Source of the DNA: Escherichia coli
Lineage (GTDB): Bacteria; Pseudomonadota; Gammaproteobacteria; Enterobacterales; Enterobacteriaceae
Length of the DNA: 64,000 bases
NCBI RefSeq assembly: GCF_013122565.1
Contig: NZ_CP053258.1
Reading direction: 5' to 3' (one strand)
The position numbers and the translations under genes were made by a program. Positions 1,908 to 4,067 of this stretch are shown here, one piece after another. Numbering within the stretch: the stretch's first letter is position 1; each line of letters starts with the position of its first letter. The notes below the pieces were generated by a model. The model was not told the DNA's origin, searched no databases, and worked only from the letters and a program-made list of their open reading frames with translations.

Positions 1908-2172
<265 letters not shown>

Positions 2173-2177
2173 TGTCT

Positions 2178-2342
2178 TTACGCGGTAGCTTCATCCTCGG
2201 CTAAACGCGTTTCGGCATCCGCGACGATGGCTTCCAGCTCGCTCAACATCTCTTCATAGCCAAAATTTTTGGCGGTGCGAGCAGGTTCTTTCGCCACCAC
2301 GGGCTTCACTGGCTGACGCTTTTTGGCCGATTTTTTACTCAT
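2178..2342 (-). CDS. yhaL: Small conserved protein YhaL (54 aa); below the ORF-track length cutoff
   Basis: Manual minus-strand translation from ATG at 2342 gives MSKKSAKKRQPVKPVVAKEPARTAKNFGYEEMLSELEAIVADAETRLAEDEATA, stop at 2178-2180; lies immediately downstream of yhaK. Confidence 0.7.
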   Translation of the reverse strand: MSKKSAKKRQPVKPVVAKEPARTAKNFGYEEMLSELEAIVADAETRLAEDEATA

Positions 2343-2364
2343 CATCATCTCCCTGTTAAAACAA

Positions 2365-3066
2365 CTAGACAGGCAAATCTATCAGCAAAGCGCGCAGTGG
2401 GGAATCGGCAACCAGCGTAATGTTAGCCTCGTCACGAATAAACGCCCCATCACCGCAGGTTAGCGCCGCTTTCTCTTCATGATGCGTAAGCGCATGAAAT
2501 TTCCCGTGAATCGATTGCAAATACGCGCGTGGCCCATGCAACTGGAAATTCGCACTTTCGCCTTTGTCGAGCACGATATGGTGCAGCCACACTTGTTGGC
2601 GTAATTGCAGGCTTCCCATCGCACCCTCTGGCGAGGCGATCAATTGCTGTTTGTCCATATTAAGCGCCAGCTTTTGAATCAGCGGATTCTCTCGCTGCGG
2701 GCAGGCATCTAGCCAAAGCTGCATTCGCGTTAACGGTTTGTCTTTGCTGAGATTGTGTTCGCTATAGCTGACACCCGGCTGGGTAGAGAGCAGCAACGCC
2801 TCACCGGCGCTCGCCTGAACATGATTGCCTTCGCTGTCGCGATACTCTGCTTCTCCATCCAGAATCACATTTAAAATATCGACTTTGGGATAGGTTCGCG
2901 GCTGAAAGGCAGCACCTGGGGCCAGCACTTCCTGGTTCAGCACGCGCAGGGAGGCATAGCCTAACAATTTCGGGTCGAAGTAGTGTCCAAAGGAAAAAGT
3001 ATACCGGGCCTGCAACCATCCGTAGTCTGCTTGTCCACACTGCCTGGCAGTTCGGGTAGTAATCAT
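2365..3066 (-). CDS. yhaK: Pirin-like bicupin protein, 233 aa
   Basis: 233-aa ORF; length and synteny between yhaJ and yhaL match K-12 yhaK. Confidence 0.85.
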   Translation of the reverse strand: MITTRTARQCGQADYGWLQARYTFSFGHYFDPKLLGYASLRVLNQEVLAPGAAFQPRTYPKVDILNVILDGEAEYRDSEGNHVQASAGEALLLSTQPGVSYSEHNLSKDKPLTRMQLWLDACPQRENPLIQKLALNMDKQQLIASPEGAMGSLQLRQQVWLHHIVLDKGESANFQLHGPRAYLQSIHGKFHALTHHEEKAALTCGDGAFIRDEANITLVADSPLRALLIDLPV

Positions 3067-3170
3067 AATTCTTGACCTCTCTTTACTTCCTTTTATGGTA
3101 AGGGGCTGGACGCTACATTGTTAGCCAGATATTCTGCCCGGTATGTTCAAATTTCCTGAATGAGAACGAA

Positions 3171-4067
3171 ATGGCCAAAGAAAGGGCATTAACGCTGGAA
3201 GCACTACGGGTTATGGATGCGATCGATCGCCGGGGCAGTTTTGCGGCGGCGGCGGATGAGCTGGGACGCGTGCCTTCCGCACTTAGCTACACCATGCAAA
3301 AACTGGAAGAAGAGCTGGATGTGGTGCTGTTTGACCGCTCGGGCCATCGCACCAAATTCACCAATGTCGGGAGGATGTTGCTGGAGCGAGGGCGCGTTTT
3401 GCTGGAAGCCGCAGATAAACTGACTACCGATGCGGAAGCTCTCGCGCGCGGTTGGGAAACGCATCTCACCATTGTGACCGAAGCGCTGGTACCGACACCT
3501 GCCTTTTTCCCGTTAATTGACAAACTGGCGGCAAAAGCCAATACCCAACTGGCAGTCATCACCGAAGTGCTGGCGGGGGCATGGGAACGGCTGGAGCAGG
3601 GGCGGGCGGATATTGTTATCGCGCCGGATATGCATTTTCGCTCCTCGTCGGAGATCAACTCGCGCAAGCTCTATACGTTAATGAACGTCTACGTTGCCGC
3701 GCCTGATCACCCGATTCATCAGGAGCCGGAACCGTTATCTGAAGTGACGCGCGTGAAATATCGTGGAATTGCGGTAGCGGATACCGCTCGTGAGCGCCCG
3801 GTGTTGACCGTACAGCTGCTGGACAAACAGCCGCGCTTAACGGTGAGCACGATTGAAGATAAACGTCAGGCATTACTGGCGGGGCTTGGCGTGGCGACGA
3901 TGCCGTATCCGATGGTCGAAAAAGATATTGCGGAAGGGCGGTTGCGTGTCGTCAGCCCGGAATCGACCAGCGAGATCGATATTATTATGGCCTGGCGTCG
4001 TGACAGTATGGGGGAAGCGAAATCCTGGTGTCTGCGGGAAATTCCAAAGTTGTTCGCTGGAAAATAA
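3171..4067 (+). CDS. yhaJ: LysR-family transcriptional regulator, 298 aa
   Basis: 298-aa ORF with N-terminal HTH region (LTLEALRVMDAIDRRGSFAAAADELGRVPSALSYTMQKLEEEL) typical of LysR regulators; divergent from yhaK. Confidence 0.85.
   Translation: MAKERALTLEALRVMDAIDRRGSFAAAADELGRVPSALSYTMQKLEEELDVVLFDRSGHRTKFTNVGRMLLERGRVLLEAADKLTTDAEALARGWETHLTIVTEALVPTPAFFPLIDKLAAKANTQLAVITEVLAGAWERLEQGRADIVIAPDMHFRSSSEINSRKLYTLMNVYVAAPDHPIHQEPEPLSEVTRVKYRGIAVADTARERPVLTVQLLDKQPRLTVSTIEDKRQALLAGLGVATMPYPMVEKDIAEGRLRVVSPESTSEIDIIMAWRRDSMGEAKSWCLREIPKLFAGK

Follow-up and report, generated by a model that had tools for sequence, protein, structure and literature searches.

Many characterised small proteins of Escherichia coli are membrane helices. 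The small accessory and regulatory proteins of this species (about 50 amino acids or less), which modulate larger proteins, are comparable to YhaL, which is similar in size, has a single helix and shows stress-linked expression, and like YhaL they slip under length thresholds. With 54 amino acids, YhaL stands just over the usual 50-aa definition of a small protein and, by its sequence, it is soluble and acidic, in contrast to the membrane helix of many of the characterised members of this class.

The second system that bears on YhaL is the small subunit of exonuclease VII, XseB (PF02609, TIGR01280; PDB 8TXR, 1VP7). XseB is an 80-residue helical hairpin, six copies of which grip each XseA stalk helix to give three-helix bundles (PMC10835039). 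XseB and YhaL are alike in that an acidic helix comes after an N-terminus of the M-x-K-K type; both begin with M-(S/P)-K-K and the helices share the motif (F/Y)-E-x-x-L-x-E-L-E-x-I-V. They differ in that YhaL has one helix in 54 amino acids, whereas XseB forms a helical hairpin of about 80 amino acids, and in that YhaL carries a variable linker of ~20 residues inserted before the helix. In addition, YhaL adjoins yhaK instead of xse genes and is restricted to Enterobacteriaceae, whereas ExoVII is ubiquitous in bacteria (PMC10835039).

Regarding the genes beside yhaL, the activity of the yhaK promoter depends on YhaJ; hydroquinone induces it strongly, and it responds to DNT metabolites as well (PMC5031710). 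The same paper cites an earlier report of nitrite induction of yhaK, and regulation of this promoter is also covered by PMC7315121. Both yhaK and yhaJ were recovered in an overexpression screen for HOCl resistance (PMC8228696), and a yhaK deletion strain (Keio deletion) showed 66-fold higher yqjF induction (PMC5031710). The yhaL gene itself was placed among the uncharacterised E. coli genes in a y-ome survey, where it is described as 'followed by repeat sites' (PMC11551758). Its RNA has been detected and is raised in long-term stationary phase (PMC7406224), and yhaL and cyuA are given as convergent genes whose transcripts overlap (PMC12288877).

Identity of yhaL and its surroundings

The window, i.e. 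the whole stretch of DNA that was analysed, comprises 64,000 nucleotides of E. coli contig NZ_CP053258.1. The features of the locus, in window positions, are as follows.

2140-2169, minus strand: REP hairpin with no U-tract, beginning about 8-10 nt past the yhaL stop (RNA fold centroid and inverted repeats)
2178-2342, minus strand: yhaL coding sequence, 54 codons plus a TAA stop (2178-2180); protein MSKKSAKKRQPVKPVVAKEPARTAKNFGYEEMLSELEAIVADAETRLAEDEATA
2181-2264, minus strand: codons 27-54 of yhaL, conserved acidic helix FGYEEML(S/T)ELEAIVADAE.RLAE(D/E)EA (alignment A2 and AlphaFold2 prediction)
2265-2342, minus strand: codons 1-26 of yhaL, variable, mostly basic N-terminal tail rich in Pro, Ala, Gln and Thr (alignment A2 and AlphaFold2 prediction)
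2343-2364, minus strand: yhaK-yhaL spacer, 22 nt, without a terminator (promoter and terminator scan)
2349-2353, minus strand: Shine-Dalgarno sequence GGGAG, 6 nt upstream of the third ATG (2340-2342)
2365-3066, minus strand: yhaK, pirin-family bicupin (Pfam Pirin and Pirin_C_2; RefSeq annotation)
3067-3170, no strand assigned: control region between the divergent yhaK and yhaJ genes (position between genes)
3171-4067, plus strand: yhaJ, LysR-type activator, divergent from yhaK-yhaL (Pfam HTH_1 and LysR_substrate; RefSeq)

The protein translated from the window was identical to RefSeq WP_001295544.1 ('protein YhaL') as encoded in NZ_CP077519.1, in which the coding sequence measures 165 nt and has the same neighbours (cyuA, yhaK and yhaJ) as its counterpart in the window. 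The K-12 protein (b3107; WP_001345966.1) differs from the window protein at a single position, S5L. Megablast located the yhaL stretch in 5405 of the 5426 complete E. coli genomes, and 'yhaL: protein YhaL' was annotated beside 'yhaK: pirin family protein' in each of 42 sampled records (30 evenly spaced rows of the E. coli megablast plus the 12 best rows of a wider search). Positions 2178-2342 are an already known and named E. coli gene, yhaL.

The first-pass annotation had read a 54-codon minus-strand frame at these positions, named it yhaL, placed it directly downstream of yhaK and attributed its absence from the ORF track to a length threshold. Both the ORF listing and the RefSeq annotation agree with the frame at exactly these coordinates, the name is corroborated by the identity to WP_001295544.1 and by the sampled annotations, and the gene indeed starts 22 nt past the yhaK stop. 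The explanation given for its absence is plausible, because the yhaL ORF, which measures at most 56 aa, is shorter than the 60-aa default cut-off of the ORF tool.

The cyuA-yhaL spacer (1897-2170) contains three tandem 78-nt units of the REP/BIME type at 1897-2138, which are 88-100% identical and are followed by the inverted REP hairpin. An RNA fold z-score of -2.4 was obtained for this hairpin, which probably serves to stabilise the 3' end and is less likely to be an intrinsic terminator. Analysis of the REP region with Rfam yielded only sub-threshold naRNA4-like matches. The best E. coli matches to the window were 77 nt shorter and aligned in two pieces, and therefore the REP copy number varies between strains. 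The repeats also give rise to a spurious 84-aa ORF (1950-2204, plus strand), which overlaps the 3' end of yhaL and whose translation is internally repeated, with …LLMLLCFVPDAGCDAGASYPAYGVFN… occurring twice. Hence, yhaL is a routine case of a genuine small gene lost under an ORF-length cut-off, and within the same 300 bases a spurious ORF made by repeats passes the 60-aa cut-off that yhaL fails.

Evidence that yhaL encodes a protein

In the window, 298 ORFs of at least 54 aa were counted, of which 109 were 54-70 aa long; shuffled sequence gave 262 ± 16 ORFs of at least 54 aa. The length of the yhaL ORF alone is no more than chance gives; yhaL stands above chance because of its conservation and the selection acting on its codon positions, not because of the bare ORF. 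One alternative that has to be weighed is that there is no protein at all, either because the ORF is a chance frame or because what is conserved is a non-coding element at the RNA or DNA level, for instance an sRNA derived from the 3' UTR or an element belonging to the REP array. The chance frequency of ORFs of this size is in line with this alternative, and so are the REP array and the sub-threshold naRNA4-like matches, which abut the 3' end of yhaL, whereas the absence of any Rfam family inside 2184-2342 is not.

A word-indexed search retrieved 77 relatives of YhaL in Escherichia, Salmonella, Citrobacter and Klebsiella. By means of a pattern scan across Enterobacteriaceae (one genome per species), 78 yhaL loci were matched in the genera Escherichia, Salmonella, Citrobacter, Klebsiella, Raoultella, Kluyvera, Kosakonia, Phytobacter, Trabulsiella, Superficieibacter, Atlantibacter, Franconibacter, Pluralibacter, Buttiauxella, Cedecea and Dryocola. 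The yhaL frame was open in every one of the 75 species loci amenable to scoring. For the ungapped 22-codon core of yhaL in 74 distinct DNA sequences, diversity was 0.128, 0.122 and 0.505 at the first, second and third codon positions, respectively, and pN/pS was 0.20. The other five frames over yhaL were interrupted by stops in most species, and purifying selection was detected in the yhaL frame only. The check that the first-pass annotation had proposed, conservation across enterobacteria, thus came out positive. Its description of the gene as conserved holds across the 75 species but cannot be extended to the whole group, since several enterobacterial genera carry yhaJ-yhaK without yhaL (see below).

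This codon-position pattern, with substitutions concentrated at third positions in the yhaL frame alone, effectively refutes the alternative without a protein as far as comparison of sequences can do so, and an RNA element as the cause of the conservation was rejected on the same pattern. Moreover, the N-terminal half of yhaL diverges by indels and the reading frame is kept, so that the ORF remains intact in 75 species despite these changes. The start site also argues against a non-coding origin: a GGAG or GGGAG sequence is located 5-9 nt ahead of the M/V/L-S-K-K start in nearly all genera, and the start codon that precedes S-K-K switches between ATG, GTG and TTG while its position is kept. 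We give the absence of a protein hardly any credence.

The longest ORF in the yhaL frame (2178-2348, minus strand) encodes 56 aa and begins with MMMSKK, and the 54-codon version starts at the third ATG. The 54-aa start is favoured over that of the 56-aa ORF because of the Shine-Dalgarno spacing and because no other start position is conserved across genera. A TTG start was observed in the Citrobacter freundii complex (L020-L025, L031, L054) and a GTG start in Klebsiella and Raoultella (L024, L035, L037, L039, L043 and others), in both cases near position 4001 of the loci and with the Shine-Dalgarno sequence kept. TTG and GTG starts combined with a retained Shine-Dalgarno sequence suggest that the translation of yhaL may be weak or tunable relative to that of yhaK. 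Judged by its evolution, yhaL is a genuine protein-coding gene of Enterobacteriaceae.

Gene neighbourhood and loss of yhaL

In the 75 loci, yhaL was always found directly downstream of yhaK, with yhaJ divergent, although this complete synteny is conditional, the loci having been chosen for containing YhaL. The neighbour on the far side varies, cyuA being present in some loci and absent from others. In most of the 75 scored species, some 20-40 nt separated the yhaK stop from the yhaL start, and no minus-strand terminator-like site was detected between yhaK and yhaL in the window. Two candidate sites at this junction were discarded, namely a weak promoter-like site, which occurs at chance frequency, and a terminator-like site, which lies on the wrong strand. 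A short spacer lacking a terminator is consistent with co-transcription, and most simply yhaL would form the second cistron of a yhaK-yhaL transcript that is activated by YhaJ. The published phenotypes of yhaK deletion could include polar effects on yhaL, which lies only 22 nt downstream, a point not addressed in PMC5031710. As for YhaK itself (2365-3066), Cys10, Cys122 and Cys204 were invariant in 34 diverse enterobacterial sequences (alignment A3), consistent with the name 'redox-sensitive bicupin YhaK' used by one source.

Genera outside the yhaL set were sampled through YhaK homologues, among the matches listed (at least 82% identity). Loci with yhaJ-yhaK and without yhaL were found in Pseudescherichia, Scandinavium, Pseudenterobacter and Cedecea lapagei (L080, L081, L082, L084, L085); in these loci YhaK was 82-84% identical and the region downstream of yhaK was located at about 2200-3300 in each. 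In Pseudescherichia (two loci) and Scandinavium there is no room for yhaL, because cyuA ends only 45-50 nt past yhaK, or overlaps the end of yhaK (L085). The spacer after yhaK is filled with a different repeat family in Pseudenterobacter (L082), and no YhaL-like frame was found in the 1.1 kb that follow yhaK in C. lapagei. On the other hand, one Atlantibacter-type locus sampled through YhaK has yhaL, and within the genus Cedecea the gene is present in C. colo (L068) and absent from C. lapagei. This distribution indicates that yhaL was lost repeatedly while yhaJ-yhaK persisted. Since at least four genera carry yhaJ-yhaK but no yhaL, yhaL is an accessory gene and not one encoding an obligate subunit; by this phylogenetic pattern, YhaJ and YhaK can fulfil their core function in its absence.

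YhaL protein, its likeness to XseB and its proposed role

An exhaustive profile search among 1.84 billion representative proteins returned only 75 matches at E ≤ 0.001. Nearly all of these matches were 40-70 aa long and plainly belonged to the YhaL family, the exceptions being fusions that are assembly artefacts and two long repetitive proteins, which match the profile through short repeated stretches. On these matches, the family is small and confined to Enterobacteriaceae. No Pfam family was found for the window YhaL or for any of the 75 members; the RecQ-1-like HTH, FAM180 and other Pfam matches shown by some members were scattered chance matches that do not define a family. Searches against PDB sequences, with the single sequence and with the profile, gave nothing meaningful, and PHROGs and PADLOC gave no match at E ≤ 1. 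A toxin-antitoxin or defence role for this small acidic protein was rejected, because there are no PADLOC or PHROG matches and no toxin-like neighbour. A literature search for 'yhaKL' retrieved only unrelated matches inside other words.

The length of YhaL ranges from 46 to 65 aa in the family. The Superficieibacter protein (L010, L012; 4001-4198) measures 64-65 aa and has a C-terminal extension of ~10 residues (…IPDGAALSRTV) past the helix. The N-terminal tail shows high column entropy (alignment A2), varies in length and is usually lysine-rich, with an average net charge of +4.1 (range -1 to +8 in 75 species), and its basic motif is absent in Kosakonia. AlphaFold2 assigned no secondary structure to the N-terminal 28 residues (pLDDT 57-73). 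With the 75-row alignment, this program predicted one helix at residues 29-53 (pLDDT 90-94), which falls within the C-terminal 27-28 residues, whose net charge is -7.9. The window YhaL carries the family core motif ML(S/T)ELEAIV..A..R, and ten positions (M32, L33, E35, L36, E37, A38, I39, V40, A43 and R46) were invariant in 75 species, with zero column entropy. When plotted on a helical wheel, these positions span every face of the helix over two turns. Neither a signal peptide nor a transmembrane stretch is visible in the sequence, according to which YhaL is a 54-aa protein of cytoplasmic type. The helix keeps its polar and small residues unchanged on every side, in a protein that otherwise drifts, and this makes it probable that a single specific partner encloses it.

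The only signal that recurred in searches with curated models was a weak one, to XseB. The window YhaL matched the XseB models NF002140 and NF002141 with E = 0.03-0.05, 45 of the 75 members matched NF002141 (best E = 1.4e-4), and the four NCBIfam families matched by most members were all XseB. Alignment of YhaL with enterobacterial XseB by hhalign gave a probability of 41.8% and P = 2.7e-4, FGYEEMLSELEAIVADAE being aligned with ASFEKALSELEQIVTRLE. Real YhaL proteins scored an average of 8.7 bits on the XseB HMM, in comparison with -0.4 ± 3.6 for composition-matched shuffles; the mean of the real proteins was reached by about 0.07% of the shuffles, or by 0.03% when the comparison was run the other way round, although these YhaL-XseB P-values would fail correction for a search of ~19,000 families. 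The likeness, as measured by these profiles, goes beyond composition and yet is weak.

Despite this likeness, YhaL fails XseB membership on both score and architecture. It reached 14.3 bits with NF002140 and 13.5 bits with NF002141, whose cut-offs are 71 and 92 bits, respectively. Pfam PF02609 (XseB) gave no YhaL match even at E ≤ 1, BLASTP produced no alignment between YhaL and E. coli XseB, and the exhaustive YhaL profile search returned no XseB-sized proteins. The XseB helix-1 motif F-E-x-x-L-x-E-L-E-x-I-V is present in YhaL, but the hairpin of two long helices (~70-80 aa) is not, a single helix being predicted at residues 29-53.

These data bear on the possibility that YhaL is a truncated paralogue of XseB, reduced to helix 1, which would occupy or compete for the XseB sites on the XseA stalk of ExoVII and would link the YhaJ stress regulon to the repair of DNA-protein crosslinks. 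Apart from the matches to XseB families, the hhalign and shuffle values and the common M-(S/P)-K-K N-terminus, this possibility is favoured by the label 'exonuclease VII small subunit' that one source (JGI) gives to a YhaL orthologue, by a truncation of yhaL listed for a strain evolved under fluoroquinolone (PMC12363166) and by the repair of quinolone damage by ExoVII (PMC7929499). That mutation is, however, one of many in the evolved strain. Scores of about 14 bits against cut-offs of 71-92, the blank PF02609, BLASTP and exhaustive searches, the low hhalign probability and the correction for multiple families all weigh against paralogy, and so does the absence from YhaL of the second helix of the hairpin, which XseB requires for the three-helix bundle. 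The adjacent neighbour of yhaL is, moreover, yhaK and not an xse gene. We consider a truncated paralogue acting on ExoVII very unlikely. Common descent of YhaL and XseB is possible from the sequence likeness and, by analogy, YhaL may share the mode of action of XseB, i.e. the packing of a helix on partner helices.

A different explanation is that YhaL works independently of its neighbours, either as a self-associating coiled coil or as a stress peptide that binds nucleic acids or the ribosome, its link to yhaK being just a shared promoter. The lysine-rich tail, with a charge of about +4 in most genera, would suit this explanation, as would the increase in yhaL RNA in long-term stationary phase (PMC7406224) and a Tn5 screen that puts yhaL among the genes under selection in Salmonella (PMC3487940), although transposon-fitness calls are unreliable for very short genes. 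Furthermore, a hydrophobic stripe formed by M32/L33, L36, I39/V40, A43 and L47 is compatible with self-association. However, the basic tail is not conserved, since it drifts freely and is missing in Kosakonia, and the invariant part is instead an acidic helix that is conserved all the way round, polar residues (E35, E37 and R46) included, a pattern seldom expected of a generic coiled coil. The strict adjacency to yhaK wherever yhaL occurs also argues for a functional link. We consider an independent peptide unlikely.

Our preferred role, put forward tentatively and short of probable, is that YhaL would be a partner-binding modulator of the YhaJ/YhaK module of quinone and redox stress. YhaJ would switch on the promoter in response to hydroquinone-like compounds, nitrosative stress and oxidants, and YhaK and YhaL would be made together. 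The invariant helix of YhaL would then insert into a helical groove or bundle of its partner, in the manner of the XseB helices that clamp a partner helix. The highest-ranked candidate partner is YhaJ, the activator, on which YhaL would exert negative feedback; YhaK comes second and a different conserved protein third. Across the yhaL-bearing genera, identity is 90-99% for YhaJ and 75-87% for YhaK; the higher conservation of YhaJ better fits a helix that never changes, and we infer from this a slight preference for YhaJ over YhaK. Binding of an acidic helix could also plausibly disturb a surface used for DNA binding or oligomerisation. The neighbourhood of the gene does not by itself identify the partner. 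An AlphaFold2 model of a fusion between YhaK and YhaL (linker GGGGSx5, genome-paired rows) had a mean pLDDT of 64, with residues 1-40 of YhaK poorly modelled and no contacts or PAE reported; in this mediocre model, which speaks neither for nor against docking, the pLDDT of the YhaL helix was ~73, versus 90-94 for YhaL alone. Taken as a whole, the best explanation is the annotated gene yhaL as a second cistron after yhaK, encoding a tail and an acidic helix, with partner modulation as the suggested role, and we consider this account highly probable.

A more speculative version would combine both lines: a one-helix descendant of XseB, arising in an ancestor of Enterobacteriaceae and captured by the YhaJ regulon, might, once induced, slot into the XseB sites on the XseA stalk or into an analogous helical target and retune the assembly and activity of ExoVII. 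We regard this version as very unlikely; if true, it would couple quinone and nitrosative stress to the repair of DNA-protein crosslinks and to quinolone tolerance. The characterisation of yhaL now has three concrete handles: a tail and a single helix that is invariant on all its faces, pointing to one specific partner; a gene that, by its evolution, is a dispensable add-on to the YhaJ-YhaK module; and a helix resembling helix 1 of XseB.
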